Shown here in pieces: positions 11,069 through 58,993 of a stretch of 64,000 bases of DNA. Both the position numbers and the translations under genes were made by a program. The stretch's first letter is position 1. Each line of letters opens with the position of its first letter. This DNA comes from Candidatus Danuiimicrobium aquiferis. GTDB lineage: Bacteria > Omnitrophota > Omnitrophia > Omnitrophales > Danuiimicrobiaceae. Under the pieces are notes generated by a model. It was not told where the DNA came from, made no database searches, and was given only the letters and a program-made list of their open reading frames with translations. Location of the stretch: the NCBI GenBank assembly GCA_001804285.1, contig MHFR01000043.1:22970-86969 (forward strand), read 5' to 3'.

Positions 11069-11074
11069 ATGGCC

Positions 11075-13617: not shown

Positions 13618-13618
13618 T

Positions 13619-18642: not shown

Positions 18643-18681
18643 TAAATTTATTTTCAAAAATGCGAAAAAAAGGCGGAAATA

Positions 18682-39900: not shown

Positions 39901-42099
39901 AGTTACTGAAACAGAATTTGACCACAACCCCATATTGTCCCGGAATTTCACCCAGACCGTTTTATTTCCGTCACCCGATGAAAATGTCCATGCCTTCGTA
40001 GTTTTGTATGTTTCGGGTGTTGTCCAATTCGAATTATCCGAAGAAAAACTCATTTGACTGATACCGGATCCCATATCATACGCGTAAAAATTCAGCGTAA
40101 CTGCCGTCTGTGAAATATATTGAGCACCGTTATTGACGCGGAGATAAGAAATCTGAGGAGGAGCTGTATCGAGCCGGATACCGGCCCCATAAGAACTGCT
40201 CATTTTCCCGGCCTTATCATAATAACGGACATACACCACCTTGTATCCGTCTCCGGAAGATAACGTGTAACTTTTGGTTGCTGCAAACGCTTCCGGAGCT
40301 GTCCAATTCGTCTTGTCCGTCGAAAAACTCATCTTGTCTACTCCGGAACCATAATCATAAGCAGATAAATTAAGCATGACATTTGCAGAACCCGTATAAG
40401 AAGCCCCACTATTGATCCGCAATGAACCGAATGGCGCGTACGTATCGAGCCGGACCGAAACGGAAACAGGCGACGACCATTGCCCTGCCTTATCCTGAAA
40501 CTTTGCCCAGACAGTCTTCAGACCGTCACCGGTAGAAAATGTCCATGCGCGAGTCGCGTTATATGTTTCAATGGTTGTCCAATTCAGGTTGTCTGTTGAA
40601 AACATCATCTTATCAATTCCGACTCCGGCATTTTGAATTGAAATATTGAGCGTTACTGCTGTCTGCGTGATATATTGAGCGCCATTATTCACAGTAAGAG
40701 CCGCAACAGGCGGAGTCGTGGCAAGCGTGATCGATTGCGAATAAATCGTGCTTTCATTTCCGGCCTTATCGAAATATTTCACATAAATCGTTTTTTCACC
40801 GTCACCCGCAGGAAGCGTAAAACTTTTTGAGGCCAAATAAACTTCGGAAGTAGTCCAATTTGTTCCATCCGTTGAAAAACTCATCTTATCAAGACCAGTC
40901 CCGGAATCCGTACCGGACAAATTTAGCGTTACAGTCCTTGAGGTCGTATACAATCCGCCGCCATTAATCACAATTGAGCCTGCCGGAGCAATTGTGTCCC
41001 GCAAAACCGTGAAATCAAACGCTTCACTTGAAACCCCATTTTTCCATTTATAACGAACACTAACCGCATTATTTCCTTCCTCGCCAAGCGGAACATCATA
41101 AGACCACGTCTTAGAACTCCCGACAGGAACCGCTTCAAACCCATTGATCAAAACACCGGCACCTTCGGGTTTTATTCCTTCAACACGAAATGCATCCTGA
41201 TTTGAAATCGGAGATGTAACGGAAGTTGTTACGGTCGGTTTAGGCGGAGCAGTGGTGTCTTTGTTGAGTGTAAGTTTAAAGGTATTGTCCGACATATGAT
41301 CGCCATCAATCGTAAAACGGATTGAATCCACTTTATGAATGTCAATCTTGGATGAAAGTAAATCCATCGAAACGGAATAATAAGAAACACTGCTAGCGTC
41401 CACGTCCACTAAATATACTTTCGCGGTATCCCGGTTCGTATCCCGGAATTCGATCTGAACAATCGGTTCCGGTGACTTCATCCCAACCACAAAATGAGCA
41501 AGGTTTGATAAATCAATACCGCCTCCGGCCTGAACTTCGATATGTGTAAGCCAATGGAGAAGCGACCAGTCGCCTGTAAGCTCCCATTCATCCATTGTCA
41601 TCCCGGGCGGAAGAACGGCCGAATTCGAAATCACAATACCGTTCGCAGGATTCGGAATCGTGGAAACATCCGGGACCTGAAGGGTTGCATCGTGCAATAA
41701 TTGAGTATCGCCGGGCGCTGGCTGGATTTCATGATAAACCGTTTGAGTCTCTTGCAAAGCTGCCTGAGTAGTCATTGCCTGAGATTGCGTTTCAACGGGA
41801 TCAGCTTTTGATAAAGGATTTGTATCCGTCAAAAAGTCAATCGTCGTAGAGGGCTGCGAGTCTGTGTTTAACGATAGCCTATCTTCCACTAAATCTGAAA
41901 CCTGTTTTTCAGGTAGCTCAGATTGCTTTTGAGGATTCACGGCCAGTTCGGTTATGCCCGTATAGCCGAGCTGTGTCACATTGAACGTCATAATCAAAAG
42001 AAAAGCGACTATCTTTTGAAAGTGATTAAACCCTTTCGATCCTCTTTGCAACTTCACTAAACTCTCCTCTTTCGAAGAATAGTGATTCATGAAACTCAC
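24961..42099 (-). CDS. Giant surface protein (5712 aa): signal-anchor, about 13 Ig-like beta-sandwich repeats, LamG/concanavalin-like lectin domain, extensive YD/Rhs-type repeats, coiled-coil, TM/Gly-rich segment, C-terminal region that may be a toxin
   Basis: Single uninterrupted ORF. Tandem roughly 92-aa repeats with the pattern DT..P.GS..IN.GA.YT.S..VTL.LSA.DSGSG..KMSFSTDN.NWT. LamG-like block LDDFNGRTSLGANWTV...FDNFVV. Many YD-type repeats. Confidence 0.85.
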   Translation of the reverse strand: MSFMNHYSSKEESLVKLQRGSKGFNHFQKIVAFLLIMTFNVTQLGYTGITELAVNPQKQSELPEKQVSDLVEDRLSLNTDSQPSTTIDFLTDTNPLSKADPVETQSQAMTTQAALQETQTVYHEIQPAPGDTQLLHDATLQVPDVSTIPNPANGIVISNSAVLPPGMTMDEWELTGDWSLLHWLTHIEVQAGGGIDLSNLAHFVVGMKSPEPIVQIEFRDTNRDTAKVYLVDVDASSVSYYSVSMDLLSSKIDIHKVDSIRFTIDGDHMSDNTFKLTLNKDTTAPPKPTVTTSVTSPISNQDAFRVEGIKPEGAGVLINGFEAVPVGSSKTWSYDVPLGEEGNNAVSVRYKWKNGVSSEAFDFTVLRDTIAPAGSIVINGGGLYTTSRTVTLNLSGTDSGTGLDKMSFSTDGTNWTTSEVYLASKSFTLPAGDGEKTIYVKYFDKAGNESTIYSQSITLATTPPVAALTVNNGAQYITQTAVTLNISIQNAGVGIDKMMFSTDNLNWTTIETYNATRAWTFSTGDGLKTVWAKFQDKAGQWSSPVSVSVRLDTYAPFGSLRINSGASYTGSANVMLNLSAYDYGSGVDKMSFSTDKTNWTAPEAFAATKSYTLSSGDGYKVVYVRYYDKAGKMSSSYGAGIRLDTAPPQISYLRVNNGAQYISQTAVTLNFYAYDMGSGISQMSFSSDNSNWTTPETYKTTKAWTFSSGDGNKTVWVKFRDNMGLWSNSVSVTVKLDTVPPVGWIKINNGALYTTSSYVTLNLSAQDSGSGISYVRFSTDNVNWTSSYTYSNSRSYSLPTGDGSKTVWVKFQDKAGTWSNPVSSTIILDTTIPTGSITINNGEIYTSSTVVTLKLTAQDAGSGINKMSFSTNNSTWTTPEAFSATKNFTLPTGDGSKTVYVRYYDKAGKVSTVYSKSIMLDTVPPQGTIAVNNGAQYIKQTNVALNLSATDSGSGLDKMSFSTDNITYSEPEVYSTTKSWDFSGGDGNKTVWVKFLDKASKSSSPVSVTVLLDTVLPTGSVQINNGAFYSNTQTVTLNLSGQDSASGIDKMSFSTDNANWTTPEIYATSKSFSLPAGDGTKTIYVKFFDKAGNASSVTHRAIILDTTAPQGTISVNGGVQYITQTHVTLNVNASDSGSGLDKMSFSTDNANWTTAETYKITKSWDFTVGDGNKTVWVKFLDKSGTWSSPVSVAVFLDTILPTGSVTINAGASYTTSNSVTLNLSAQDSGAGIETMSFSTDNISWTEAETYSSSKNFSFPSGDGTKTVYVQFFDKAGNASTICSNSISLDATSPTGSLEINYGAAYATSTQVTLRLSAADTGSGISKMSFSTNNVSWTASENYTTLRNFTLPSGDGNKTIYVKYFDKAGNESTIYSQSIFLDKTVPTGSVVINHGDVSTTSRTVTLTFAADDGNGAGVSSILYSLDGGSTWSAWQSYVPELSVLLPDGNGEKTVKYKIRDAAGNESSYYEDRITLNMGTDPVLFLDDFNGRTSLGANWTVQSGSFSIGNNNLWQSVAGVPGQIVLANAPSVNNYEIDFDMAIRSWDVDQVGLIFRKQDLQNYYLAVYTRNYSSGYFKFIKVVNGASTVLTQSSTPIISDSLYHHMKVIVNGNQFEMVFDGETRVTAQDGSIQNGTVGIYSQMGSEFFDNFVVKNSGITVSLPVVNPLPQYTTAHLRTISGTKTSGTSIWINGVEKVPSDVQTSWSVEVPLSADGNYTFSIFARDGSGSKSNVVEVSTVRDTIAPSGSVIINNGASKTSSANISLALNVEDETSGLDSVRLSTDGGTNWTAWENFQSTKTLTLSSGEGEKTVLVEVRDHAGLTQTFSDSILLTTATPPAIQFLSSAVTASPDYVLRYTVNGVEKTENWKLHTGENRILVRALDRGLYTYSDFVVTFNGTEPSLPAMPTVPVLSSDLVSMTTEDGLVVKYDQGNLVAIEKTDDYELYLPVFNGDVLTGGLLVFKNGDKLLFEGGHALYKLSSDGATTRYNADNFVTSIVGQDQKIVRFSYQLDPAGKVIGTLMSEQDMTSFYDGAGLPVWFKKTDGTDIRYVNGSLHEYKDNSGNYYLYEINGIYSGVEQTGSRSTLIYVTPAGTSTPLPIGEIQNNLASYPTIKATLESKIPIQIDYDMNHQMTKVISGKEEELALDNGLPESLMDQSKSTMFFTALTNEDGDIENLALSQNGIDQSFNQTGNLNSITLSDGTVLEVNAEKLNEIQAGDGSVLANLTWNGAQLTGYVRTYEDGTVETYQNSTIKTRQDSNGNITTYTSGQPITMKTPDGRTYQISSGINTSGKTERKLDLISIDLDDGRRIEFENGKPIRYIQTKDGQSGIYDVPVLPDGTYYVPSLKLTGAELRAVTIDPAGSVLSGEILFSDGTQYLIENGLLKQQITPSGQMVKFSEEEPEPIVPTTPVPAQPLTEAEQIYRNQLIEKEFEYFTSSASIHALTELPFDNYDAGTHQSSNYSQATLAGFWAEILVAIAKGDYVTSKITREQAFQKLVTLLSSLKVAQQQAGWNGMFSFFTIKETQVPVLDPLGNLTGQTQTVVSYERTFNSIGLGDNLNLSVSLSSVIGALTGLSLDPALSVLRDQIISKSNDILTAQDPGYAQFYNSSKKQFNMAYEFSGTTGSFAGQMDRLFNEFRTGLFWLVARHPEYTPALEKLAITIRPYESSDGLQFNNAVPFDGGAFQMFWPLIYQDETQYSEFNIALRNFLYAQADYVSQQEVPGLLSAGSNPGGDYVGKIGLPEASETDDHLLTDIGSIYGTASAFGLAPHYVLQFLKNIETKFPQVKTAYGYVDSLAIRNVTTVDPVTLQPVTTKQPVYSSRYYGIDQASFLLALLKTSQNYYQNYLTQKNMKNTVDQIYQSFSLGLTPVMENNPTAGNFGITPSILYGGSAAHPDGLSPELIKRPAFVTTVVDPEYGAGQVVNYFTPTGKFHHPEIEFPIDDTNFISMNLQEYLLTSGDPFAGKSLFEDFILDLLDESYSLGTFYTSGYGSARQAITQDPLIGAVRHLQFDLKYLEMPVGIWALYHSFDISKYDFLSVPVRLGKGTPKGTRLKFELKGLGEIFVTDEITEEWTYLNIPKTAPMGALTEIAVSILSPDGGPVAGDIYIGPLSLMKVRSTKSIDWKSLVGKTESEIRMLLIQNAKTQPSGGSAITGEEVLENFSVDADGKLVSGTRKLVDGSVQYFKDGHLTKWIFPNGRTIVYANGLASYIIDLARGKLEEGKFYYDQDLRGNIRQFIVEDNDRRRVFGSDGKLQSINDKGRIINFEDGKIKSIVLSNATLTNLEFASDQKLLSAHVAMSDGSSFDINQGGDQFVQYPDGVKVYYRDTYITAIETPQNGRTEFSYQFDAARKLIGVTATFNGQAKSMIEFIQMAGREVEKSYLLDKSPMEVIPISGIYGFNANPNDLSVATKGSFGDGAAIRYQFQYKTITPDILGMVFSHKDQPIEVSGYDFLGITLMQDSSMTWGQDFELKLKSPELATRYVFEVDNAQNSYKTYVFSLDGKSGEEGETTLEVIRDPAGLSKLGQIYIKNLTYYSVRRTEKPLWETILNITGNEIQSLKIETEMLTAVGADIAQRKAITITDIQSMLDLPTSISYVETGDGKDFGKVKKFVRFDGSQVELENNMIKKVILPDGTVNEYQTNVNETHAEIEGGLANLSDKGSMDYKYGALRKVTQSDGREYEFSYEYDDAGTETTLVKDELSGDVRRFQDGKLLRSDTTQGLKTNYQYANGVLIGAEIAYKNKVLQSSQYHFTDEETQVTDEDGTTWFYDKNGNLIKHITKDGYLYTYSDFQFSSSYPYMWKDDYKRALIDAKDLRAVTLSGFQAADGSQILYGFDKGTKGEIKFANGDHGVNLEFDEELKIKSGQIQFANGMILEIENYLPVRGRLETGELFDVPYPMDYPVAYNPEFVQGADGGYLGFKTYRRVELYKYTGIFRQFAGYAYNKYTYDRQGRLIKVETPQGTTDDITYQTNAAGEAISYSVHRKKQFSYQGVAFPKPIELLTDGGSQRLMDSGKEVARHDGDGFLVAVYKEAEGQWLSFSGTFSSAADRLGLKNFLENIKNGEYMVLAVNDPQMNQIRSDISSLLKDMGARPLTLGDAESSGGKYLLMGNKNFLDGNGHQAANKTDLSSTIESEEEINKPITSDSKWSNNPLIVKTAVSANDAYSAFMVAYQSLKPSEDIQKSAVYGGSNQMMLAERLDGQRSYYQNGRIKEVFNGDGNLVYSYEYVCPVTCNKPEDYLLSKVNMVKARQDLVSDEIEQQHQIEQTKYDALQNLAWQDEVARAQIQENLDSGIAAIDGQISSYESQKYQEIKKCKNFMGFKYGCHVERFEVPGVQDAINQLRSQRTELLQTAETQLSLIPGEVDARKQEIENAIADRLIELGNQKKDIERDILKREVEPVLSDYYRRILGRDPSSAELEYWTDDTLAKYQPNAAGTNTPSVDTTLLYSRLNDPSANSEKTRRLNEKQAIISGVRTFLTNYVTAQSAAKEAMLNQLKLQPGDVVDLDSTDVSEILAWLESRDLHFGQSAYLALKEMLASRGINVAADVLGKELILIDILMGLITRFLTGELVLSAYAMMKVAAIHNDNFSTVQYTYADLLNLYRTVCPSSQTPCSLRIIAHIAKDHYIQITNVTETEVFYREVSKGENGEDLTIDKDQFLETWDVDGKGGYLIVPTEKVMLGKEVSKETALKIQGAFLPFLFFVISFVLTVASAVVSIFSPTWGKILGYAALVAGIIGIVGSVGQWVVNGVKMAYSAVAQQGFFGALKSGFAAIGHQMMQAVHYVGRFFQNAFQFVKNGFSGGFKTLGSGIMKINTYLAHPEIAGAGSASARFSVEQIVSRNIIAASLNYNLSKGFEGFGLNNTFTRLASAFIGFGAVGIGGSTSSFIQSGLQGLMLQGVSEIGLKLDLPPPVTQALSLVGSAALGAYFNPNLTLKAALIDIAPQVTSKLTLGGIEFIGRSMGLNPRIAQLIGLPVSAIVGNLTGRFSDVVIGYRDDGTAIYVSNPYNEESIWSTLKRSILNEATLSGMVSIGSSLIGDALDVNPVLISLGLRGLVGGVQGLTDTLDQRNAGARFLVGMTGGLKDTVEDLVKLGGKHLTLTEKTFYLSQLVTFATQKGSRDIFDFFEEYANDIIGRNTAEAILKSGHNVSEYFKAKRQAKDFTVTTLDNVSVHEYTVGDSKFILTEDETQLLARKFGNHMEKGEYVFDKDGNYLLRNGEVVFTNGSETLHLTIRETEIVQIDMVQSGGNSLTFFGTADQPLVLSKNPEESFKIESGVLRNWDTGETNYYSDGKITAVQDTQFINFTTASAGPVAGAIQMAQYFDPEGMNQGFEIHMDEGLRNEMLDLNQSAINGVMSSIVDHQTAETTSGSSWIEQIQLKQQDLYNGGIEAIHKVRSFLQPGYDALKAQIPILQNDLSLDLLEAFAVGVVDTVLIGTELDDIFNEYGQLKNNWREMSLNEKTMKGLSIGGHAFNEIMRGFQLMSFGLSIRSVGKAVVGTVDNTIDDWVRMILKDPMHPDASKLDDLFRNAEFEAKWINQVDSVHDLKNVANRRLVDYSKARSKIFRRDAVEVNKAYPETYNPKPHKPGFPVTEYVRSGADLTAEGFMRIHGESNTVGTWLMRKTDFEALKLEAQNTNRNFAELLQERLALPTKPTMVSDFVPSPDRAVAIRESTVNPIFSDSPNQTQLEIMLEDEAEREFLKDWFKNTRSL
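36999..40975 (-). repeat. Tandem roughly 276-bp coding repeats (12-13 copies) encoding the 92-aa Ig-like modules of the giant protein
   Basis: Periodicity is evident from the protein translation. DNA-level identity between copies is only moderate, consistent with diverged repeats. Confidence 0.7.
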
Positions 42100-42138
42100 C
42101 CCCCTATAACAAAGATAAGATTTATTATTTCAAACTGC

Positions 42139-45100
42139 TTAGGCCGATTGCGCAATTAACTGTTTTACTTCAAACCAAGCTGAAATCACCTGATAATCCC
42201 AGAAATAAAGGCCGCCATCCTTCTTAAACTGCATCCCGCCAAATTCCTGAAAAAACCATTGCTGGATCAATTGATCTTTAATCTCGGCGGATTCGTTTCC
42301 AAACCCCTTAAAATTCGCCGATAATTTCTTAAGAAGAAGGAGCGTTAAAAAAATGTCCGGAACAAGCTCTGCGCGATTCACTCGCGAAAATGCTTCATCC
42401 GTCTCAAGGAAAATGACACCCTTCGAATAATCGAGATTCCCTTTTGCATTTAAAAACACACGATCCGGAACCAATATCGAAGCGCCGCTCATCACGCTCT
42501 TTTGGAGCATGCATTGATCGTTTGCTTGTGTCGAGACGAATTTGACAGAGCGTGTGATGTCGGGAACTAATTTTCTTGCTTTGATTTGAAGTTCTCCCGC
42601 CCGAGACCCGGCAATCACAAGCCATGGACGCTCAGGGTGCGCTTCCCCTTTGGCCTGAATTAATCTCAGAACTTCTCCGAAAAGAAACTCGTCTTTCACA
42701 AATATATTCTCATCTGAAATCATCACTTGACCGCCCTGTGATGCAAGGATGGATTTTATATTCGGGCGATCCTTCGCAAATTTCGATATCCCGGAAAACT
42801 GAACCGCTGATATCTCTTCTATTCTTTTCTCGCGAGAAAGCTCTCTCGATATTTCCCATTCATTGCTGCCGATCGCGAAGAAGCCGAAAACAGCGGCTTG
42901 AGCAATCCTGATCCTTAATTCAGAGCGAGACACGCTTTGAGACGCTTGAGATGGATTCAATCCATTAACTCGCACCTTAATCCATCCCGCATCTTCTCCC
43001 GAAATCGGATGAGTTCCGTCACCGTCAGTCAGGTTTGGCGAAATTCGAACACGAATCGTTCGAATATCCGAAACATCAAAACCGGTTCCTTGAAAGGCCG
43101 CTAAATCAGAAGCTTTAATGGTTTTCTTGGAAGGTTCTGAAGTAATCCCGTTAATCGTGATGGTCGCAAGTTTCCGGTTTGTGCCGATGCCGGAATAAAA
43201 TCCAATTTCACAAATTGGGAATTTATCGGAACTGATCTCAATCGCGAAATCTTTTTCAGCCAGATTATAGATTTTCTCACCGCTCGGCCGGCTCGCAAGA
43301 ACACGGGCATCTTTGTAAATCGGGTTCGTGGTTGCCGCAAGATTCACATCCATCAGAAAGTCATCGTCTGAAGGACGGGAAACGGACGTCACGCCAGACA
43401 CTCCCGGAAAATTGAACGCAACAGGATTCGCCCAATCCCCCTCAACTCCCATTAATGTAGAAATAAAATTATATGTAATGATCCAATCTACAACGATTTC
43501 ATTTCCGGCTTGGTCTTGAAAGGTGCGGCTTATCTGGTTATCGCCTTCCACTAACGTAATCGTTTCTGTCCTTTCCTCGTCATCAACGGTATAAATCAGC
43601 GTATAATTTGCGTCATAGCTGACAATGGACGATTGTAAAACAACTACCGGAGGCATCGTATCCAGCGTAATTTGCCAAGTCACTGTTGTTTGCCCTCCCG
43701 ATGCACTTGTAAACGTTCTGGTAATCACATTCTCGCCTTCCTCTAAAGTGAGATTTTCACTTTGCGAAACAGCGTCAACCGTGTAGGTCAATACGTAATC
43801 CGGATTATTTGTAAGAAGAGGAGATGTAACTTCGACAACCGGCGGGATAATCGGAGTCTCAACCCGAGTGATATTGATTGTCTGCGAAGCGCTTAGGAAA
43901 TTATATTGATCTCGCGCGACAATACTAAATGGGTTTTCCCCTATTGCTAAATTAAGATCAATGGACCAAGCCGTTAAACCATTTAGGGCAACAATTTCTA
44001 TATCATTAATCACGATCGCCGTATTTGCAGGCTTAGTGCCTTCCAGTTTGATAGCACTTTCAGAAGTGGAATTTGGATAACTGGAAATAACGGGCTCGTT
44101 AACAACGGGCACTCTTAAAATATCAACTGTTGCAGGTGCGCTTTCGTTCCCTGCCGCGTCCTTCGAACTGATACGAAATGAATTCACTTCCAAACTGAGC
44201 GGAAGTTCTTTAGACCATGTCTCCGACGCATTAACCGGAATAATTTCTGCCCCATTAATCCAAATTGATGAGTTTGCTTCTTTTGTTCCATTTAAGAGAA
44301 GCGTATCAGCTTGAGTAACAGGACCCACAGAATCCACCGCCGGAACAACAGGCGGAGTTGTATCGGGCGGTGTAACAGTGCCTCCACCTCCGCCGCCACC
44401 AGTTGTTGGCACAGATTCACGAGTAATTTCAATTGCTTGAGGTTCACTCAATTGTCCGAATTTATTACGAGCAGCAACTTTAACCGTATTCTTTCCCATT
44501 ACTAAATCAACCGTAACGGGACCCCATGTTGTTTTCTGATCTTGAACTACAACCTCTTGATCATTAATCAAGATAGACATGTTAGCGAGTTTAGCGCCTG
44601 AAAGACCAATCACAGCTTCTGTCGTTTTCTCAGGCGTTTGATTCACTTGCGGTTTAGCAGGCGGTAAAACTGAAACGGTGACGTTAACTTCGTCACTCAT
44701 TTTTCCCGAAGCATTTTTTGCGTTAATCGTAATTTCCGTAACGATTTGAGAAAGTGTGAGTGTATAATCCCATGTGGTTAATTCATTTATTGGAACAATT
44801 TCATTTCCGTCAAGATAGATAGCCGTCCCCGATGCTTTTTCCCCGCTAAGCGTGACATGATCTTCATAAAGCTTAATATCCGTTGATTCAAGCGTTGGAG
44901 CTGGAACAGAAGTCTCTGGCTGTGGATTTTGGACTCCCTGCTGATTTGGGTCATCTGTCGTTCCACCCGGCGTGGGTGTGGTTGGTGTTGTTGGCGTTGT
45001 CGGTGTAGTGGGCGTTACGATCGGTGTGTCTGTAGAATCGACCGGAGAAACGGGCTCGACTCCACACGCCGAAAATAATGCGGATGCTCCTGCAATAAAT

Positions 45101-46995
45101 AACCACATGACTTTGTTAAGAAACGAATAATATTGGAGAGATACGGGCATTGCCGTTTTATTTGATGAACGTTTGCTCTCTAAATTTTCACGGATTTCAG
45201 AGCGCACTACTTGGTTGTTAATAATTTCTGCCGGAACAAATTGAAGATTTCGATTTAAATGGAATTGGCTCGCAAGCGCCGTATAATCAACACCGTCGAG
45301 TAATCGCGGATTTCCCTTGAGAATGTCAGCAACCATACGCGCCTGATGATCGAGTCGAGCGCCCAATAAAGCGGGATCACCCAGGTATGTAGGTTTCGGA
45401 CGAGTAGCGCGTTTCTGTAAAAGACTATTGAGATAATAATCACGCGACTCTTCCTTCCCTTCGAAAGACTGGATATTAGGACGAACGATTACATAGGAAA
45501 CTCTATTTTCTTTGTACCATGCTTTTATCGGATTGGTGTGGAACCCGCCTGCGATAACAACTAAGATCTGATTGCTATTGTTAGAGATGTGTTTCTGAAG
45601 TTCCCTTTTAAATCCTTCTTCGCGGTTAATCGCAAACGCATAGGAATCAAAAGCGGATTTAAATGATTTTTCTAATTTCGTTAAATCTGCTTTAAAACGA
45701 ATAGACGGATGAATTTCTTGAAATGAGTTCGATAAAGAACCGGGGTTTTCTTCGAATATTTGGCGAAGGTATTGATAATCGTCCCGCGTTAAACTAAACG
45801 AATAAAGCCTTTCCAAAGCAAAGATAAATTGAAATACTTCAAACAATTTATTTCCCGAATCACCTTTTATCGCGTTAGACGCCAATAGCTGCGACAAAGA
45901 ATCCAATTCCTGTTCAAGCCGCGGATAATCCAGTTCTTCACGGAGGATGTTCTGTCCTAAAATCTGCGAAACACGTGGGAATTGCTTAAAGAATTCGAAA
46001 TTCGCAGGGATGAAACTTACAAACTCTTCAAGGCTTTGCCTTATACGCTTATCCTGCACCCTGGCAGTCGAAACTGACAACCATTTCTCAAAATCACTTT
46101 GCCAATTGCTGAGTTGATGGGATGAAAGATATTGATTTACCTTTTTCTTTTCTTTCTCAAGCGCAACATTAAATTCATCTCCTCTCGAAATACGATCCAA
46201 TTCCATAAGGCGGGCTAAACGGACAAGCATCGGCCAATCGAATTGAAGCGATAACTCATTTAAATCCTGATCAAGAGCCTTGAGCGCTTCTTTTTTGAGG
46301 AACATAAAATATGAGCCAAGATCTGTCCGTCTGTCTCGATAATCCAACCAATGCTCAATCATTGAATAAGAATGCGAAGGAAGTATCTTACGAATCTGGT
46401 CCTTTAGTTCCGCTCGGAAAAAAACGAGTTCGGCCTTCCATGCTTTCGATCGATCTGCAATCGAGCGAAAATAATCCAAGTCATCACGGTAAAGGCGCGG
46501 ATCTTCAAGGCCATAACCTTTGATCCGTGAGTCATTGTTACGCACCAAAAAGCGTTCCGCGCCTGAGAGCTCCCCGCGATCCACAAGATTTTGAGTGAAA
46601 AAGTCAAGCTCCTTGCCGTCTTTAAACAATCGAAGCCGATTAGCATTGATTTGCCCTGCTGCGCCTTCAACCAAATATGTACGGATGCCGTTTTTGCGAT
46701 TCAGGAATTCCAGAATTGATTCGATATTCCGCTGCGCATATTTGCTCTCATGCGCATCTTCGATATGAATAACAACAGGCCTGCTTTGAATGGCATTATG
46801 AAGCTCAAGTGCTTCCATAACTGAGCCCAATTCTTTTGGAATCGCCGGAGCTTCCCATGAAAAAGACCCGTGGGTTTGCGAAGAATGCAATCCCCTGCTG
46901 AAAGCCCATGCTGTATCATAAAGAAGAAAACTACAGATGACAAAGAACGCTATAATTCTCGAAAATGATCGGTGCGTTTTAAATAATGTATTCAT
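42139..46995 (-). CDS. Large secreted/surface protein (1618 aa): N-terminal signal peptide, a roughly 600-aa domain of unknown function, internal lipoprotein-like signal, TPTTP linker, four roughly 60-aa Ig-like repeats, poly-Gly linker, C-terminal domain
   Basis: Signal peptide MNTLFKTHRSFSRIIAFFVICSFLL. Internal MWLFIAGASALFSAC lipobox-like segment. TPTTPTTPTTPTTP linker. Repeats matching G.K...A.I.ING.E..P.N...W......L. GGGGGG linker. Confidence 0.8.
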   Translation of the reverse strand: MNTLFKTHRSFSRIIAFFVICSFLLYDTAWAFSRGLHSSQTHGSFSWEAPAIPKELGSVMEALELHNAIQSRPVVIHIEDAHESKYAQRNIESILEFLNRKNGIRTYLVEGAAGQINANRLRLFKDGKELDFFTQNLVDRGELSGAERFLVRNNDSRIKGYGLEDPRLYRDDLDYFRSIADRSKAWKAELVFFRAELKDQIRKILPSHSYSMIEHWLDYRDRRTDLGSYFMFLKKEALKALDQDLNELSLQFDWPMLVRLARLMELDRISRGDEFNVALEKEKKKVNQYLSSHQLSNWQSDFEKWLSVSTARVQDKRIRQSLEEFVSFIPANFEFFKQFPRVSQILGQNILREELDYPRLEQELDSLSQLLASNAIKGDSGNKLFEVFQFIFALERLYSFSLTRDDYQYLRQIFEENPGSLSNSFQEIHPSIRFKADLTKLEKSFKSAFDSYAFAINREEGFKRELQKHISNNSNQILVVIAGGFHTNPIKAWYKENRVSYVIVRPNIQSFEGKEESRDYYLNSLLQKRATRPKPTYLGDPALLGARLDHQARMVADILKGNPRLLDGVDYTALASQFHLNRNLQFVPAEIINNQVVRSEIRENLESKRSSNKTAMPVSLQYYSFLNKVMWLFIAGASALFSACGVEPVSPVDSTDTPIVTPTTPTTPTTPTTPTPGGTTDDPNQQGVQNPQPETSVPAPTLESTDIKLYEDHVTLSGEKASGTAIYLDGNEIVPINELTTWDYTLTLSQIVTEITINAKNASGKMSDEVNVTVSVLPPAKPQVNQTPEKTTEAVIGLSGAKLANMSILINDQEVVVQDQKTTWGPVTVDLVMGKNTVKVAARNKFGQLSEPQAIEITRESVPTTGGGGGGGTVTPPDTTPPVVPAVDSVGPVTQADTLLLNGTKEANSSIWINGAEIIPVNASETWSKELPLSLEVNSFRISSKDAAGNESAPATVDILRVPVVNEPVISSYPNSTSESAIKLEGTKPANTAIVINDIEIVALNGLTAWSIDLNLAIGENPFSIVARDQYNFLSASQTINITRVETPIIPPVVEVTSPLLTNNPDYVLTYTVDAVSQSENLTLEEGENVITRTFTSASGGQTTVTWQITLDTMPPVVVLQSSIVSYDANYTLIYTVDDEERTETITLVEGDNQISRTFQDQAGNEIVVDWIITYNFISTLMGVEGDWANPVAFNFPGVSGVTSVSRPSDDDFLMDVNLAATTNPIYKDARVLASRPSGEKIYNLAEKDFAIEISSDKFPICEIGFYSGIGTNRKLATITINGITSEPSKKTIKASDLAAFQGTGFDVSDIRTIRVRISPNLTDGDGTHPISGEDAGWIKVRVNGLNPSQASQSVSRSELRIRIAQAAVFGFFAIGSNEWEISRELSREKRIEEISAVQFSGISKFAKDRPNIKSILASQGGQVMISDENIFVKDEFLFGEVLRLIQAKGEAHPERPWLVIAGSRAGELQIKARKLVPDITRSVKFVSTQANDQCMLQKSVMSGASILVPDRVFLNAKGNLDYSKGVIFLETDEAFSRVNRAELVPDIFLTLLLLKKLSANFKGFGNESAEIKDQLIQQWFFQEFGGMQFKKDGGLYFWDYQVISAWFEVKQLIAQSA

Positions 46996-47080
46996 TTGGC
47001 CTCACAGGCCTCCTTTCGTTTTCCCGAAATTGACTTTCTAAAATGCTCTGTTAATGATTGAAAAAAATATTGCGTTCTCA

Positions 47081-47521
47081 TTACCATCGGTTCCCCTTTC
47101 TGAAAGATATGAGGCTTGCCTGCGCCATTCTTAAAGATGAAAAACCATTAGGAAGGTAAATTCTTGAAACACGGTAACGCCTTTCTTTTGGTCTATAGGC
47201 AATCGCAGTTTCCCCTTTAAGATATTTCAAGAGCAGGCAGAGATTCGATTCGAGCTTTTCAAAAAACGGGCTGCATTCGATTCCGCTTAATTCGTCTGAG
47301 ACTTTCAAAAGAAGCTGTCCCAGTTTTTCACCTGGTCGATTTTTTTCAATAAACTTGAAAATCTCTCCTTTTAAGATACTGCACGATAAAGAAAGATGCT
47401 CGTTTTCACTGGCAGTGGACAATTTCATGTACAGGCTTTCGATTCTTTTCTTCAAACGATAGATTCTTGTTGCACGCTGCGCTTCCGATTCCCCGACATT
47501 CTCAAACCATCTCATAAACAT
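47081..47521 (-). CDS. Hypothetical protein (146 aa)
   Basis: ORF only. Confidence 0.4.
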   Translation of the reverse strand: MFMRWFENVGESEAQRATRIYRLKKRIESLYMKLSTASENEHLSLSCSILKGEIFKFIEKNRPGEKLGQLLLKVSDELSGIECSPFFEKLESNLCLLLKYLKGETAIAYRPKERRYRVSRIYLPNGFSSLRMAQASLISFRKGNRW

Positions 47522-47719
47522 TCACTTCTCCTTTTCTTCATGCCGATTGATACATTGCTCTAAGACATATAAATTCGTTTGTAAATTGCTCTACTGGCTT
47601 CATGGACACAACAGGCAGCGCATAAGCCCGGACAGAATCCGGCCTATCAATGACAAAGTAAATTAATACGATTCCCGAGTGAGATGATAAATGTTCTGAG
47701 CGGGCGGCCTGCTGATTCT

Positions 47720-48121
47720 TCATAGTTCCCCCTCTTCCGCGTACGCAATGCAGAATTCGTCACTTTCAAGCAAAGCGTAGCCACGAATGCTTAGAAACGC
47801 AAGAAAGTAGAAGCACAAAATCATGAGAAATCTATTCAGAATATAGAAATCTATTGTGAATAGATTTTTTAGGAGAAACCGGTTGTTTATTGGTTGCGGA
47901 TATAATGATGTATTTATTACCTGAAGATTAAGTGATTGTTGAAATAGACAGCAAGAATTTTCTACTAAATAAAATGGATGCTTTTCTACGAAAAACGGCT
48001 GAAATGCTTCTGCAGTCTTAACGAATGAGAAGACAAGAAACGTCAGAACAAAAACAAAAACCGAGTTTCTAAACTTTGGAAGAAATGAGAGTCGAAAAAC
48101 CGCCCAAGCTAACTTCTTCAC
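47720..48121 (-). CDS. Hypothetical membrane protein (133 aa)
   Basis: Hydrophobic N- and C-terminal segments. Confidence 0.35.
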   Translation of the reverse strand: MKKLAWAVFRLSFLPKFRNSVFVFVLTFLVFSFVKTAEAFQPFFVEKHPFYLVENSCCLFQQSLNLQVINTSLYPQPINNRFLLKNLFTIDFYILNRFLMILCFYFLAFLSIRGYALLESDEFCIAYAEEGEL

Positions 48122-48488
48122 GTCGAACCTCGTGAAGAACGGAATCGTAAATTGCTCTTAAACGTAAATTGAAATAAAACGTTTTAGAGCTTCCGCTCTT
48201 AGCTGGGCTTTTTTTGTTAGCTGGGCTTTTGATTGGATCGGAAAAAAATTGAATTTCTATGATCTTCTCTCCGACTTACTAAAAAACTATCGGAACTATA
48301 CCCCACATTTTTTCGTTTGTCAAATTTTTGAAGTATTTTTTTGAAAATATTTTATTCATCAGGTATATTTAAAGTGAGAGCAGCTAGACGCTGTGAGCCC
48401 AGCTAAGGCAACACATTCATCAGAACCTTTTCGCAAAGATCTTTTCGCTGCCCACACAATACTTTCAGAGAACAACTTCCTTAAAAAC

Positions 48489-48782
48489 TTAAAATCCAAA
48501 ATTGGCCTTCAACCGCTCTAAACGTAGAAACGCCATTTGAATAGCATACCCATCCCATGAGGCATCATGAATGAGTCCCAGAAGAAATGCGATATCGAAT
48601 TTCACGTAAAAATCCGGGGGAAGCTCATCAAGCAACGCTTTTAGCTTTATTTCAGCAGTAACCAAGGCTTCTTTCCTTGCCTTACCGTTAACATAATCTG
48701 AAAGGACCTGCCTTGAAAAAGCGAGAACTTCTTTTAAACAAGCGATTCTTTCTCGATTTACGGTATCAGAAACTTGATCCAT
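48489..48782 (-). CDS. Hypothetical protein (97 aa), last gene of the overlapping-ORF operon
   Basis: Overlaps the upstream ORF by 25 nt. Confidence 0.4.
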   Translation of the reverse strand: MDQVSDTVNRERIACLKEVLAFSRQVLSDYVNGKARKEALVTAEIKLKALLDELPPDFYVKFDIAFLLGLIHDASWDGYAIQMAFLRLERLKANFGF

Positions 48783-49024
48783 TTGGTTTTAGCCTCCTGT
48801 CTTTTTACTTTCATAAGCTTATCTATCTCTGAAATGGCAAAACTCAAAATCGGATGATCAAGTTTTTCAGAGGCAAAAGCCTGAATCTGGTCCAATACAC
48901 CTAATACCCGTTTCTTTTCCGCATATGCCATAATTGATTCTTCTAAGCATTTCCGTTCCTTTACTGCTTTCAAAATAAGTGAAAGAAAAACGGCTTCCGT
49001 ATCGTCCCTTAGAAAAATAATCAT
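48758..49024 (-). CDS. Hypothetical protein (88 aa)
   Basis: 4-nt overlap with the upstream gene and 25-nt overlap with the downstream gene. Confidence 0.4.
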   Translation of the reverse strand: MIIFLRDDTEAVFLSLILKAVKERKCLEESIMAYAEKKRVLGVLDQIQAFASEKLDHPILSFAISEIDKLMKVKRQEAKTKWIKFLIP

Positions 49025-49461
49025 TGAGCACCTCCCGTTACCGGGAAATGGACATTGTCAGACAATATTTTTCTATATTCTTCAGTACAAACTTGATTTA
49101 GTGCAAAACTTTCTCGGATAGCCAGTAAATGCTCTTTAGCGGAAAGACGATTTAATCGAGTTGGCTCAAGCAAAAACTGTTGGACAGCAAGCGATGCTCG
49201 AAATGCATGGATGAATGTGCCATCTGAAGTAAGAATAAGAACATTACGGCATAGATGATAGGTAATCTCAACAATAGCAACCTTTTCACGTTCTTCTATT
49301 TTATTCGAAGAATCTAAAATACCCCATAGATAAAAGATGGTGGAACGAATATCACACAAAATTCGATATGGCATTTTCAGACCGTTCCGCATAACAACTC
49401 CGTTTTGGCATTCCATCATTAAAAACACCTTCCTTTCAACAGGTTTCAAGCACGCCATCAT
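49021..49461 (-). CDS. Hypothetical protein (146 aa)
   Basis: Overlapping start and stop arrangement within the operon. Confidence 0.45.
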   Translation of the reverse strand: MMACLKPVERKVFLMMECQNGVVMRNGLKMPYRILCDIRSTIFYLWGILDSSNKIEEREKVAIVEITYHLCRNVLILTSDGTFIHAFRASLAVQQFLLEPTRLNRLSAKEHLLAIRESFALNQVCTEEYRKILSDNVHFPVTGGAQ

Positions 49462-50026
49462 TCACACAAGCGAAATCAGATTGATAAAATTCCTTCTCAG
49501 GGAAAACGTCCTCCGACAAACGCTGCTCAAGTTTTCTTTGCTTCAGAGCTTTGTCGCAAAGATCGACGCCCGTTCTTATCGAAATCACCGGAGCAGGGCC
49601 AAAATATAAATCCAATTCATCAATAAGCAACAATGCTTTCTCAACCACTTCCTTATTCGAAACTGCTTCACTCAAATATGTTTGTAAAAGCTCAAATTGG
49701 ATGCGTTTTTTAAAGCGTAATGTAAATTGATCGATATAGTCACTCACCCATGATTCCGCAATAAGAAGTGATGCCATGTCACCACTATTAATCCCTTTGT
49801 TAGAATCCATAAAACAATCCACAAGAACTCGCCGAATAAAATTGAACATCTTCTTCAGCCGGCATTTTTCGTCCATGTCTAGAAAGATATCCATCACAAT
49901 TGTTCCAAAAGCATCTATATGCGAACACGCTTGCTCCTGCCCGGCTATCATCGGAATCTCTAAATTCCCAACGGGCTTAGCACACATACAGTTCGCCTCC
50001 AAGCTCACGTTCAGTCTGTCGAACAC
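49436..50026 (-). CDS. Hypothetical protein (196 aa)
   Basis: Overlapping start and stop arrangement within the operon. Confidence 0.45.
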   Translation of the reverse strand: MFDRLNVSLEANCMCAKPVGNLEIPMIAGQEQACSHIDAFGTIVMDIFLDMDEKCRLKKMFNFIRRVLVDCFMDSNKGINSGDMASLLIAESWVSDYIDQFTLRFKKRIQFELLQTYLSEAVSNKEVVEKALLLIDELDLYFGPAPVISIRTGVDLCDKALKQRKLEQRLSEDVFPEKEFYQSDFACVNDGVLETC

Positions 50027-50116
50027 GTCTCATATATATCCTGCACCAGCGGTAATATTTTTCGATTTTCTTGGCAACCGATTTCCGTTTAGATTTTTTC
50101 ATATGAGTCACCCCTT

Positions 50117-50578
50117 CTAGCAATGAGCCGGAACATGACACAGAGTTTTAAATATTTCATAAATGCCGCGACGTACCTCATCTTTTACCCGCATACATAC
50201 GGGTTCTTTTCTCTCCTGAAAGTCCAAGTGGCATACAAGCCCTAACCCCTCGTAAATCATAGCTATCATTTCCATCGCTCGCTCCTTATGTTGTACACAT
50301 GTATTAGGATTCACTCGGAGACAATATCTTAAATACCGAAATGCATTACGAAATAACTGATGATCAGCACGAGGATTTAAGAAATGATGTTCCAAATCGA
50401 AAAGAAAAAACTGCATCCGCATAATGGTCGTTTCCTTCCTTAGATTCTTGCCCTGAAGCAACATGATAAGAATCCCCATATTATTCCCGAACCAGCCGCG
50501 AAAAAGAGTTTCACGGTCGTTTGGCAGTTGAAACCTTCCTTTTTCGTTTATGAGTTTCTCTATCAGTTGTTTATGCAT
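50117..50578 (-). CDS. Hypothetical protein (153 aa)
   Basis: 8-nt overlap with the upstream gene. Confidence 0.45.
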   Translation of the reverse strand: MHKQLIEKLINEKGRFQLPNDRETLFRGWFGNNMGILIMLLQGKNLRKETTIMRMQFFLFDLEHHFLNPRADHQLFRNAFRYLRYCLRVNPNTCVQHKERAMEMIAMIYEGLGLVCHLDFQERKEPVCMRVKDEVRRGIYEIFKTLCHVPAHC

Positions 50579-51242
50579 GAACCAGAGTCCTCCGTTTCAG
50601 ATTTTGAAGTGACTCCTTGAAGAATATTTGAACTTTTCTCATGATTTTTCGTACTCTTGGCTTAAGCCACCATATTTTGAAGTAATGTCTTCCCGAAAGA
50701 ATATCTTGAAGCTTGCGGAAGCTGCACATCTCGAAACATTCATTTTTCCCTTGTTTGCTATTTCGATGGCCATAGTAACTAGCGAAACTGCAAATCAATA
50801 TCCGGTATTGGGTCAAAAACTTGCACCATGTCATTTTATCTGATGGCTGTTCAATTAAGAGCACTTCAATCAATCGATCAATGAGAAGACTCAATCGATA
50901 GTCACCCGTTGGCGTAAACTCTTTAAGACATACCAAATGGGCAACAATGCGATTGACGGCATTCCCACTGGAATTAGGCAGATTCATTCCATTGAGAATC
51001 GCATACGTCGCCATTGAAAAAAACGATAGGGCATGACCTGAATTGTGATATTCTTGCTCTTCAATCGTATCCGCTTTCCGTTCAATACCCGCAGGCATGA
51101 CTATTCCGTTAATCATATCTTTCCAATTGTCACCGAAAATAAAGGAGGCTTTCTGGTAAAAATTACTTTCAAGTTGCTCATAATTCGTTTTATTCTCACT
51201 CTTACAATCTCGATTCTCCATCTTCTGTATCCTCCTATTCAT
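50571..51242 (-). CDS. Hypothetical protein (223 aa), first gene of the operon
   Basis: ORF divergent from the XRE-family regulator gene. Confidence 0.45.
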   Translation of the reverse strand: MNRRIQKMENRDCKSENKTNYEQLESNFYQKASFIFGDNWKDMINGIVMPAGIERKADTIEEQEYHNSGHALSFFSMATYAILNGMNLPNSSGNAVNRIVAHLVCLKEFTPTGDYRLSLLIDRLIEVLLIEQPSDKMTWCKFLTQYRILICSFASYYGHRNSKQGKNECFEMCSFRKLQDILSGRHYFKIWWLKPRVRKIMRKVQIFFKESLQNLKRRTLVHA

Positions 51243-51336
51243 TTCTAATCTCTGCTTCTAAAACGAAAGATACCACATCAATAAACCTTTTCAAGACCCA
51301 TAATAAAGATAGTTTTAGTTACAATATTATAAATAT

Positions 51337-51365
51337 TTGACAACCTACGTAACTACATGTATACT
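51337..51365 (+). promoter_or_regulatory. Near-consensus sigma70-type promoter (TTGACA, 17-nt spacer, TATACT) for the XRE/cupin regulator gene
   Basis: TTGACA at 51337-51342 and TATACT at 51360-51365, with an exact 17-nt spacer, about 100 nt upstream of the ATG at 51465. Confidence 0.4.
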
Positions 51366-51464
51366 TTGGTAGTTAAAGTGAATTTCAGATATCAAAAACC
51401 GAAAGAAAGTTGACAAATATTTTTTTAGAATTAGGTAAAGAAGTTTCTCGATCAGGATAGGGTA

Positions 51465-52793
51465 ATGTATAGAACTATTTGGAATAAATACATAGAATCA
51501 TCACCTAATTTCCCTACTAAACGGCGCCCCCTAGTTGGATCTGTGATAAAAGAAACCCGCATTGATAAAGGAATACGTCAAATGGATTTTGCTAAGCAAA
51601 TCAAAATGAACTGGTCCACATTGAAATCCATTGAAAACGATCACCAAAAAGCGACCACTGTCGAAAACCTCGAACGTTGCGCCAAACCATTAGGACTGGA
51701 TATCGATCAAATGATTCTCTCGGGACGAGAAAGAGATCCAGCAAACTGTTTTATTTTAAAAAAAACAGACCCAACACCAACAAAAGGAGTTAGAACCAGA
51801 AAAGCACTTCCCCCCGAATGGAACAAAAGCATTCGTTTTGACTTTAACACGTTTGATCTCACTCCAATTTCACCGCCAATTGCAACACAGAAAGATTTTT
51901 TCGCTGCCAAGATCGTTTTACCTCCTAAACGATCAATGGAAAATATGGTTCTTGGAGTCCATCACCAAGTTATGGGAATTATTTCAAATGGTTTTAATAT
52001 CAGAATTTCTTATGCGGGAACCGAAACGGTCGCTACCACCAACCAAGCATTTGCACTAGATGGCTATTTCCCCCACACTATTACAAATGAAGACGAAGAC
52101 ACTTCCGCAATAATTTATTTTGTTACCAAATTTCCCGATTTTGAACATACGAGAATTGTGCATGAACCTTCATTTCAATGGTCACCTGCCATTGATATTG
52201 CTGCAGGCGTGAAAAAAGTGCAGCGATATAAATCGGAAAGAAAAGATCGTTCAATTTCTGTTCAGCACCTCGCTGATTTAACTGACAATCTTGATGCAAT
52301 TCAATTACGAAAACTGATGCGGATTAAAAAAGATTCGTCCGTTATTTACTGGGATAAAATTGAAGATCTTCTTGGCGGAACAGGTATCACTATGAAGGAT
52401 TTTCTTGCGTGGTGTCATCATGGCGAGAAACAAAATATTTCCGTAGCCACTCCAACTGCACGCGCCGTGATTGATTACATGTCATTTTACAGTCTTAAAA
52501 TATATTCTGTCATACCGCCCCGCATCAATCCTCATTACTTTATCGGTGAGCTAATGATCGACGGGAAGAATAATCTTCCCCGAAAAAGATGGGAACGCGA
52601 AGATAACGCAATGATTGCCGTTTGCGTCATGGAGGGCGACTTAGAAATCAAAATAGGAACGTATAGAAATCCGTTGATGCTGACAAAAGGTGAAAGTATA
52701 TATTTTGACGGAAATCTTGGATACTCATTAAGCAATATCAGTGAGCCTCAAGTGAGGATATTCCTCGCGACATATCCTGCCATACGCTTTTAA
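51465..52793 (+). CDS. Transcriptional regulator: N-terminal XRE-family HTH plus C-terminal cupin-like domain (442 aa)
   Basis: IRQMDFAKQIKMNWSTLKSIENDH helix-turn-helix near the N-terminus. C-terminal LEIKIGTYRNPLMLTKGESIYFDGNLGYSL beta-barrel-like segment. Confidence 0.6.
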   Translation: MYRTIWNKYIESSPNFPTKRRPLVGSVIKETRIDKGIRQMDFAKQIKMNWSTLKSIENDHQKATTVENLERCAKPLGLDIDQMILSGRERDPANCFILKKTDPTPTKGVRTRKALPPEWNKSIRFDFNTFDLTPISPPIATQKDFFAAKIVLPPKRSMENMVLGVHHQVMGIISNGFNIRISYAGTETVATTNQAFALDGYFPHTITNEDEDTSAIIYFVTKFPDFEHTRIVHEPSFQWSPAIDIAAGVKKVQRYKSERKDRSISVQHLADLTDNLDAIQLRKLMRIKKDSSVIYWDKIEDLLGGTGITMKDFLAWCHHGEKQNISVATPTARAVIDYMSFYSLKIYSVIPPRINPHYFIGELMIDGKNNLPRKRWEREDNAMIAVCVMEGDLEIKIGTYRNPLMLTKGESIYFDGNLGYSLSNISEPQVRIFLATYPAIRF

Positions 52794-57848: not shown

Positions 57849-57857
57849 TTTGATAAA

Positions 57858-58676: not shown

Positions 58677-58686
58677 TCTTTGATAA

Positions 58687-58992
58687 TTATCGTTTAATAC
58701 CTCTCTGCTTTTGCAGATGAATAATATAATCTACGATATCAGATAATTTGCGCTTTGTACTAACTTCACTCAAGTTGGGACTTATTTGAAAATCGTCTTC
58801 AATCGCATTCATTAAATCTAGGGATTCAAGCGAATCCACGCCCAAATCCTCCGCTAAATCTGTCTCCCAATTCAATTGAGGCCTGTTTTCCGGCTTCTTC
58901 TCTTTCATCACTTTCAATAAATTCATTAAAATTCCTTTTAAGCGATTAAAGATTTCTTCTCTGTTCGGGTTTATTGCTCCGCTCTCTGCCAT
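58687..58992 (-). CDS. Acyl carrier protein (about 101 aa)
   Basis: DLGVDSLESLDLMNAIEDDF phosphopantetheine-attachment motif. The ATG at 58992 has an AGGAGGG RBS and begins 1 nt after the KAS stop. The N-terminal extension shown in the ORF track was rejected. Confidence 0.75.
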   Translation of the reverse strand: MAESGAINPNREEIFNRLKGILMNLLKVMKEKKPENRPQLNWETDLAEDLGVDSLESLDLMNAIEDDFQISPNLSEVSTKRKLSDIVDYIIHLQKQRGIKR

Positions 58993-58993
58993 A

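Follow-up and report, generated by a model that had tools for sequence, protein, structure and literature searches.

A block of six minus-strand open reading frames (ORF1-ORF6), divergent from a gene for a helix-turn-helix (HTH)-cupin regulator (REG) in an Omnitrophota metagenome-assembled genome (MAG), is most likely the variable, fast-evolving middle of an undescribed Omnitrophota-specific regulatory cassette that stands before giant genes. The stretch analysed, called the window, is 64 kb long and gives all coordinates used here; loci with L0xx numbers are related contigs, unbinned metagenome contigs among them. The window sequence is present in four MAGs of a single Rifle-aquifer population, 'Candidatus Danuiimicrobium aquiferis', in whose public annotation every protein of the locus is 'hypothetical'. 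The locus is chromosomal signalling hardware of the Omnitrophota and no acquired accessory island. As to its working, we assign a probability of about 0.5 to a model in which the block would form an operon under sensor control, with an RNA at its 3' end that pairs with the leader of the downstream giant-gene unit.

The giant genes of Omnitrophota are a current puzzle and are thought to be linked to predation or attachment, and to our knowledge nothing is known on how a cell controls a gene of at least 17 kb. The locus offers the first concrete, testable regulatory hypothesis for such genes, naming a conserved sensor set, a dedicated XRE-cupin regulator and a structured RNA with covarying leader complementarity, and it adds two new conserved protein families, one of which (the mini-protein described below) was overlooked by gene callers.

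The cassette and its conserved core

In a word-indexed search of 5.8 billion proteins, ORF1 and ORF2 matched only their own population, and Pfam, NCBIfam, PADLOC and PHROGs gave nothing significant for ORF1-ORF8 (ORF7 and ORF8 being further frames downstream on the same strand), in agreement with an earlier sequence-only reading of this DNA, which had recognised no motif in the products. The orphan status was broken by an exhaustive HMMER search with ORF3, which yielded one marginal relative, P0021 (E 4e-4; pairwise E 3e-14), on the contig L009, where a divergent cupin gene is followed by small ORFs. Gene by gene, L009 matches the window in ORF2 (35% identity, E 7e-16), ORF3 (30%) and ORF5 (44%), and also in both halves of REG, in the adjacent protein with two receiver domains (double-REC) and in a 41-aa mini-ORF (50% identity). 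A profile of the two ORF2 sequences then recovered ten metagenome loci, and one of eight sequences recovered 29 protein clusters, none of them with a Pfam domain; ORF1 has no relative in the related loci. The ORF2 clusters with taxonomic names are Omnitrophota, except for one MAG labelled Harrisonbacteria (L029; GCA_030688765.1, Candidatus Harrisonbacteria, Patescibacteria), where the ORF2 member is followed by HATPase and double-REC genes, and which probably reflects mis-binning of an Omnitrophota contig or, failing that, a transfer. Two scans of the GTDB species-representative genomes gave no relative, and, since the window genome's own regulator and ORF5 were not returned either, the GTDB representative of the species seems to lack the contig or to have it masked. 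Seeming orphan operons of candidate phyla can thus resolve into conserved systems via one weak match and genomic context.

The profile searches recovered more than 14 loci with common synteny, established from tblastn maps and annotated contexts in lineages with a GC content of 38-55%. The gene order begins with ketoacyl-synthase and acyl carrier protein (ACP) genes or related ones, followed by a seven-transmembrane (7TM) histidine kinase, a REC protein and a double-REC protein, and continues with the opposite-strand HTH-cupin gene (~212 aa) and then ORF2 and the mini-ORF, in either order; the kinase/REC part is kept in L012-L015, L022, L024, L025, L027, L028, L030 and L031. After the ORF2/mini pair the cassette exists in two versions: in the first, a soluble DHp+HATPase kinase follows (L013, L017, L022, L024, L029), and in the second, a large or giant gene stands behind a few small ORFs (the window, L012, L021, L025, L028 and probably L014); this gene codes for 2061 aa in L012, >2736 aa in L021, >4505 aa in L025 and >3218 aa in L028. 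The N-terminal part of the 5712-aa giant protein of the window, which carries Ig-like Big domains and RHS repeats, is 39-42% identical over several hundred residues to the L021 giant that follows ORF2 and the mini-ORF. A second, paralogous cassette, of the kinase type, lies on another contig of the same genome assembly.

Two preprints on Omnitrophota giant-gene neighbourhoods (West-Roberts et al. 2023, 10.1101/2023.11.21.568195; 2026, 10.64898/2026.06.07.730766) describe type II secretion system (T2SS) and pilus genes and glycoside hydrolases; cupin, two-component or response-regulator genes of the giant-gene flanks are mentioned in neither of them. Those neighbourhoods resemble the cassette in that conserved upstream genes accompany very large secreted-type proteins; they differ from it in that the cassette is regulatory, includes no secretion machine and also exists without a giant gene.

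The regulator at the head of the block had been read as an XRE-type HTH protein with a cupin barrel and a near-perfect promoter, dedicated to the operon that faces it. The HTH part stands above the cut-off (HTH_3, 26.4 bits versus 23, residues 28-81; PADLOC HTH_VI, 2.8e-8), whereas Cupin_2 in REG itself is sub-threshold (18.9 bits, cut-off 27.2, residues 382-433); precomputed Cupin_2 annotations exist for the REG homologues of L009, L024, L025, L027, L028, L030 and L031. Cupin proteins of 212 aa with a single module, from related loci, align to REG residues 28-224 and again to 258/333-440, which identifies REG at the sequence level as a tandem duplication of a ~212-aa HTH-cupin unit; double-module regulators also occur in L013 and L026. 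The promoter TTGACA-17-TATACT is indeed present before REG with 11 of 12 consensus matches, and a homologous cupin-facing promoter in other loci reads TTGACT-17-TATCCT. On the opposite strand, the probable promoter of the small-ORF operon aligns with a conserved TTGAC-17-TAnnnn that faces ORF2 in ten loci, and the cupin-ORF2 intergenic regions are alignable across loci with their promoters back-to-back. The dedication of the regulator is borne out, as this layout from cupin to ORF2 is repeated in all related loci long enough to show it. REG resembles the known XRE-HTH plus cupin regulators (PuuR-type, HTH_3 + Cupin_2), both in the N-terminal Cro/C1-type HTH followed by a probable cupin barrel and in the gene being divergent from its presumed target operon. 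Its match to PuuR of NCBIfam is weak, however (20 bits versus a cut-off of 211), and the scores against characterised regulators lie far under their cut-offs; moreover, its HTH-cupin unit is tandem-duplicated (442 aa), and the window family is tied to the set of 7TM kinase, REC and double-REC proteins and to the ORF2/mini pair.

The block had been expected to be conserved as a unit of six genes, which it is not: only ORF2 and the 41-aa gene are widely conserved. The mini-ORF, a seventh gene that is absent from the public gene calls for the contig and was overlooked in the sequence-only reading, adjoins ORF2 in 10 of 13 loci by a hidden Markov model (HMM), and its product, with an invariant Cys at the C-terminus, shows 41-56% identity among 8 loci. 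The ORF2 family is marked by the motifs GWFxNxM, FLxD[LIV][EQ]HH and WLKAFFRVYP and by eight columns invariant in 28 sequences, including D61, H64 and H65. In the two genes together, codon differences fall mainly on position 3 (0.62, versus 0.42 and 0.37 at positions 1 and 2), and more than half of the identical residues are encoded by different codons, a pattern indicating that both evolve as proteins. Lipidation or carboxyl-methylation of the mini-protein Cys by the products of neighbouring ICMT and ketoacyl-synthase genes was considered and rejected, the window being without ICMT; in L024, ICMT is present and the mini-ORF absent, and L028 has ICMT together with a diverged mini-ORF without the terminal Cys.

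The remaining products of the block, apart from the orphan ORF1, are sparse, fast-evolving families (ORF3/ORF6, ORF4, ORF5). Relatives of ORF3 and ORF5 are confined to the L009 lineage, where the ORF5 homologue is 44-46% identical (L009, L015, L016), and relatives of ORF4 stand directly after the mini-ORF in L025 and L017, weakly matched at E 1e-4 in a small database. A first BLAST pass found no internal paralogy among the ORFs, and a weak ORF3-ORF6 link came only through L009, whose ORF3 homologue matches ORF6 at E 1e-3, with 15 invariant columns in the three-way alignment. The candidate reading of ORF5 as a fragment of a soluble kinase was rejected, its lone match (E 0.016) receiving no support from a profile search.

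AlphaFold2 (AF2) models predict similar four-helix cores for ORF2 (from the family alignment; residues 20-111, predicted local distance difference test (pLDDT) 83-94) and for ORF3 (from three sequences; residues 38-129, pLDDT 80-91), and Foldseek against the PDB and viral models found no significant neighbour for either. A histidine phosphotransfer (HPt) role for ORF2 was rejected, as 28 family members left the HPt models unmatched and the PDB gave neither a sequence nor a fold match; the invariant H64 and H65 sit in a D-x-x-H-H context. The top Foldseek matches of ORF3 are FliS chaperones (target-normalised TM 0.62-0.64, root-mean-square deviation ~3 Å, E >=0.45), small up-down four-helix bundles like the ORF2 and ORF3 models, and small proteins encoded upstream of giant genes could by this analogy serve the giant proteins as their own cytoplasmic chaperones or export adaptors, a role that ORF2-ORF6 would share. 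We consider this unlikely. Four-helix bundles are generic and the FliS match, though the best one for ORF3, is non-significant and comes without sequence similarity, while ORF2 has no FliS match; the ORFs belong to a transcription unit separate from that of the giant genes; and ORF2 with the mini-ORF also occurs in loci where a soluble kinase follows and there is no giant gene. Because of this last occurrence, a role of the pair as signalling adaptors is favoured.

The structured RNA and the leader of the giant-gene unit

In loci of the giant-gene type, the small-ORF operon has at its 3' end a structured RNA element of ~100 nucleotides (nt), which was found by nhmmer in six loci. RNAalifold folds it into helix P1, which closes the element, and the hairpins P2 and P3, the latter with variable sequence in its loop. 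Paired cells make up 85.7% of the alignment at the proposed pairs, compared with 36-57% in slid-partner controls; 12 of the 21 pairs have changed on both sides, which none of 500 shuffles matches. There are 13 G-U cells against 3 A-C cells, and the ORF (minus) strand is therefore favoured as the RNA. A covariance model found a copy on which it had not been trained, right after ORF2 in L019 and L020, at 53.8 bits and with a longer, compensated P2. Rfam gave no match at gathering score, and at E <=10 only eukaryotic noise of small nucleolar and long non-coding RNAs (E >1); by these comparisons the element is new and without an Rfam family. A promoter-like site on the plus strand (48341-48369, 10 of 12 matches) stands back-to-back with the internal promoter treated next and points into the RNA element, and an antisense transcript from it is possible.

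ORF7 and ORF8 had been described as continuing on the same strand; both are present, yet they are not part of the six-ORF operon. The gap between ORF6 and ORF7 measures 367 nt, has no predicted canonical terminator and has its own sigma-70-type promoter with 11 of 12 matches, so that ORF7, ORF7b (a further small frame), ORF8 and the two large genes downstream constitute a second unit. A TTGACA or TTGACT -35 box with a 17-nt spacer occurs at the equivalent place in L009, L021, L025, L026 and L028.

The loop of P3 holds a sequence, X', that is the exact complement of two tandem sites, X, in the leader downstream of this internal promoter. X' and the two X sites are the sole three matches to AGCCCAGCTAA in the 64 kb. 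The same layout exists in L009, L014, L021, L025, L026 and L028, with a different sequence in each; in L014, the three-helix element is absent and X' lies in the loop of a long hairpin. In all six loci tested (the window, L009, L021, L025, L026 and L028), an exact complement of 10-12 nt recurs at two tandem sites 134-273 nt downstream of the X' copy, a two-site rule that none of 300 shuffles per locus reaches. For L029-L031, the RNA element is missing or the contig ends too early for the rule. Folding of the leader predicts both X sites unpaired, in an A-rich stretch between two stem-loops. In L009, a 9-bp intrinsic terminator has the second X site as its 5' arm; X sites as general terminators were rejected, this being true only of L009.

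Such an element resembles the loop-seed RNAs (small RNAs derived from 3' untranslated regions, CopA/CopT, control of leader termination by small RNAs) in being a structured RNA whose single-stranded loop is complementary to a leader site predicted to be accessible, and in keeping that complementarity through sequence drift. It differs from them in that the RNA and its target stand in tandem on one strand with a promoter between them and the target is always duplicated, and in that the element has no Rfam family.

Two other explanations take the same repeats as DNA signals. In other phyla, large surface proteins are well known to be phase-variable through inversion of their promoters, and X' and X could be the inverted repeats of an invertible promoter (inverton), by which the giant surface proteins would be phase-variable and the RNA element incidental; identical 10-12-bp inverted repeats do flank a strong promoter in six loci, much as in the invertons of fimS and Bacteroides, where the strong promoter before a surface-protein gene lies between short inverted repeats. 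However, the window repeat is tandem, and only on one side; X' always lies in a loop of compensated helices, inside a covarying RNA structure for which the 13 G-U cells favour one strand; no recombinase gene is adjacent; and a single orientation is seen in the eight assembled contigs of the population and in all related loci. We regard inversion as distinctly improbable. By the other explanation, the X sites would be DNA operators for a locus-specific protein, either the second HTH of REG or the basic mini-protein, with the DNA looped around the internal promoter; one site upstream and two downstream of the promoter do resemble repressor looping, and a DNA-binding regulator is encoded in every locus. 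Against it, the sites have no dyad symmetry, most loci with X sites carry a single-module regulator only, and the sequences are wholly different between loci, yet exactly complementary to the loop of a covarying RNA; we consider operators unlikely. Both explanations are weakened because X' is placed in a covarying, strand-biased RNA and all contigs show a single orientation.

The pairing model, to which we return, would run as follows. REG or its single-module counterpart would bind the shared intergenic region and set transcription of the small-ORF operon according to a ligand or metal, the two-component proteins may feed the same decision, and ORF2 and the mini-protein would act as a signalling adaptor pair, possibly with a shared metal site. 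The RNA at the operon's 3' end would then pair with the two leader sites, either in trans or on read-through transcripts, and would couple expression of ORF7, ORF8 and the 1618-aa and 5712-aa proteins to the sensor-controlled operon, up or down; in the L009 lineage, pairing at the 5' arm of the terminator would be anti-terminating. A bolder version, which we think rather unlikely, treats the system as an addressable RNA key-and-lock, in which the loop would carry a locus-specific address and the cognate giant-gene leader the same address twice, diversified addresses would keep paralogous cassettes orthogonal, and ORF2 and the 41-aa protein would be new cofactors of signalling or RNA handling.

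Several points weigh against the pairing model and the cassette as drawn here. All the regulatory links are inferred from synteny and sequence, and, as no significant structural neighbour emerged from the fold searches, the functions of the proteins are guesses. The six-ORF block is not present in all loci, and nor is the RNA element, which kinase-type loci lack; L012 has a large gene and no detectable RNA element. The RNA structure derives from just six or seven sequences, the complementarity rule rests on its six defining loci (L019 and L020 end before the leader), and only the L009 lineage shows canonical terminators that involve these target sites. Codon adaptation of ORF1, ORF2, ORF4, ORF7 and ORF8 is below that of housekeeping genes.

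Coding evidence, composition and the accessory-island explanation

The ORFs of the block are coding. The six minus-strand ORFs, ORF7, ORF8 and the 442-aa plus-strand ORF lie where the sequence-only reading had placed them, and its claim that they are genes and not random ORFs agrees both with their coverage (they fill 97% of 48489-51242, where shuffles reach at most 32%, n=500) and with codon log-likelihoods, by which the annotated frame is the top one of six in every ORF. Good Shine-Dalgarno motifs precede ORF2, ORF5, ORF6, ORF7, ORF7b and ORF8, and also the internal ATGs of ORF1 (51221), ORF3 (49987) and ORF4 (49419); the public gene calls adopt the shorter forms of these three, and the true starts are likely at 51221, 49987 and, for ORF4, at 49419 or 49392. 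Among the reported overlaps of 4-26 nt, those of 8, 4 and 25 nt stand, but the 26-nt overlap of ORF3 and ORF4 is probably not real because the true starts likely lie further in. A single frameshifted pseudogene was rejected as an explanation of the block: ORF2 and ORF3 share one frame, but four stops lie between them, and their homologues elsewhere are separate small genes. The eight locus-carrying contigs, from several samples, are 99.9-100% identical and all collinear; an estimate of the population ratio of non-synonymous to synonymous substitution (dN/dS) was abandoned as they are clonal, the 12 'mismatches' of L008 being mostly Ns.

The block was earlier taken for a candidate accessory system of foreign composition, with anti-phage, toxin-antitoxin-like or prophage-remnant functions, that is, an acquired island under its own XRE repressor. 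It does consist of small unfamiliar proteins beside an XRE-type regulator, several of its ORFs have weaker codon adaptation, and a true mobile island with an integrase and a restriction-modification system is found elsewhere in the window (0-17 kb). As to composition, the block has a GC of 0.36-0.42, lower than the 0.43-0.47 to its left, but to its right, throughout 53-64 kb, GC is 0.32-0.40. The claim of foreign composition does not hold, since GC in the adjacent two-component genes is no higher than in the block, and there is no compositional island. For the anti-phage function, the best PADLOC matches of ORF1-ORF8 have E >=0.003 and <=14 bits, and only the generic HTH of REG matches. A toxin-antitoxin-like function finds no match in Pfam, NCBIfam or PADLOC, and the ORF2/mini pair is fixed in chromosomal synteny and not mobile; a PHROG 'MazF-like' match of ORF6 (E 0.0017) covers 46 residues of an all-helical family. 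A prophage remnant is not indicated either, as PHROGs gave nothing significant, the window has no tRNA gene and there is no viral structural neighbour. No relatives were found in IMG/VR, INPHARED or PLSDB; the only integrase of the window is 47 kb off, in the separate island, and no recombinase occurs within 40 kb of the block. Since the regulator, ORF2 and the mini-protein are moreover held in fixed synteny with chromosomal kinase/REC genes across lineages of 38-55% GC, acquisition as an accessory island is very unlikely.

Coordinates and neighbouring features

Table 1. Features of the regulatory cassette and the giant-gene unit, in window coordinates.
Feature	Coordinates	Strand	Basis or relation
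REG, 442 aa, two tandem HTH-cupin modules	51465..52793	+	HTH_3, weak Cupin_2, homologue alignment
REG promoter TTGACA-17-TATACT	51337..51365	+	11/12 consensus matches
Probable small-ORF operon promoter TTGAAA-16-TATCTT with TG	51267..51294	-	promoter scan and alignment
ORF1, 216 aa from ATG preceded by Shine-Dalgarno motif (223 aa maximal ORF)	50571..51221	-	lineage-specific orphan
ORF2, 153 aa, conserved core protein, predicted four-helix bundle	50117..50578	-	29-cluster family
Mini-ORF, 41-aa basic protein, C-terminal Cys	49977..50102	-	between ORF2 and ORF3; homology and HMM
ORF3, 183 aa, ORF3/ORF6 four-helix family	49436..49987	-	HMMER relative P0021
ORF4, 132 or 123 aa	49021..49419	-	weak relatives in L025, L017
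ORF5, 88 aa	48758..49024	-	homologue in L009/L015/L016 lineage
ORF6, 97 aa, weak ORF3 paralogue	48489..48782	-	via L009
Structured RNA element, helices P1, P2, P3, ~100 nt	48352..48460	-	nhmmer, RNAalifold, covariation
X' = TTAGCTGGGCT (minus strand), in P3 loop	48396..48406	-	exact complement of both X sites
Internal promoter TTGACA-17-TATAGT	48295..48323	-	11/12; heads ORF7-to-giant-gene unit
Two tandem X sites AGCCCAGCTAA, 48217-48227 and 48199-48209	48199..48227	-	leader, downstream of internal promoter
ORF7, 133 aa, hydrophobic N-terminal and C-terminal segments (read from sequence)	47720..48121	-	best coding frame
ORF7b, 61 aa, ATGA start overlaps ORF7 stop	47538..47723	-	public annotation, best coding frame
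ORF8, 146 aa, orphan	47081..47521	-	best coding frame
Downstream cargo: 1618-aa gene and 5712-aa giant gene	24961..46995	-	Ig-like Big domains, RHS repeats
Upstream signalling genes: double-REC 271 aa, REC 128 aa, degenerate (probable) double-REC 281 aa, 7TM histidine kinase 753 aa	52794..57160	-	Pfam, synteny

Among the products of the upstream signalling genes, the 281-aa protein (54045-54890), probably a degenerate pseudo-receiver, has no Pfam match and is 24% identical to double-REC proteins of L013. Further signalling genes, at 17883-23023 on the plus strand just past the 3' end of the giant gene, code for a REC protein and for two more 7TM-GAF histidine kinases, of 734 and 746 aa; together with the 753-aa kinase (54899-57160), these bring the HisKA_7TM kinases of the window to three. 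Lipid/polyketide-type genes recur upstream of the 7TM kinase, at 57222-60232 in the window, 3536-5997 in L024, 1042-5485 in L025 and 2052-4764 in L028, and include those for ketoacyl synthase, ACP, enoyl-CoA hydratase, GDSL lipase, thioesterases and ICMT-family methyltransferases; REC-ketoacyl-synthase fusion proteins are encoded in L024 and L025.

In the second unit, ORF7 weakly matches a 71-aa ORF in L009, and ORF7b and ORF8 have no relatives in any related locus. At the far end of the window, 166-17000 is a separate mobile island with a tyrosine integrase (166-810), a pair of a MoxR-type AAA and a VWA/metallopeptidase protein, a TrwB/TraG-type coupling protein (9215-11068), a Replic_Relax protein (11075-11854) and, at 12877-15340, an XhoI endonuclease together with a methylase of the Eco57I/TaqI type. 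Finally, a GC-rich hairpin at 46995-47010 (GGCCTCACAGGCC, plus strand) covers the start codon and ribosome-binding region of the 1618-aa gene.

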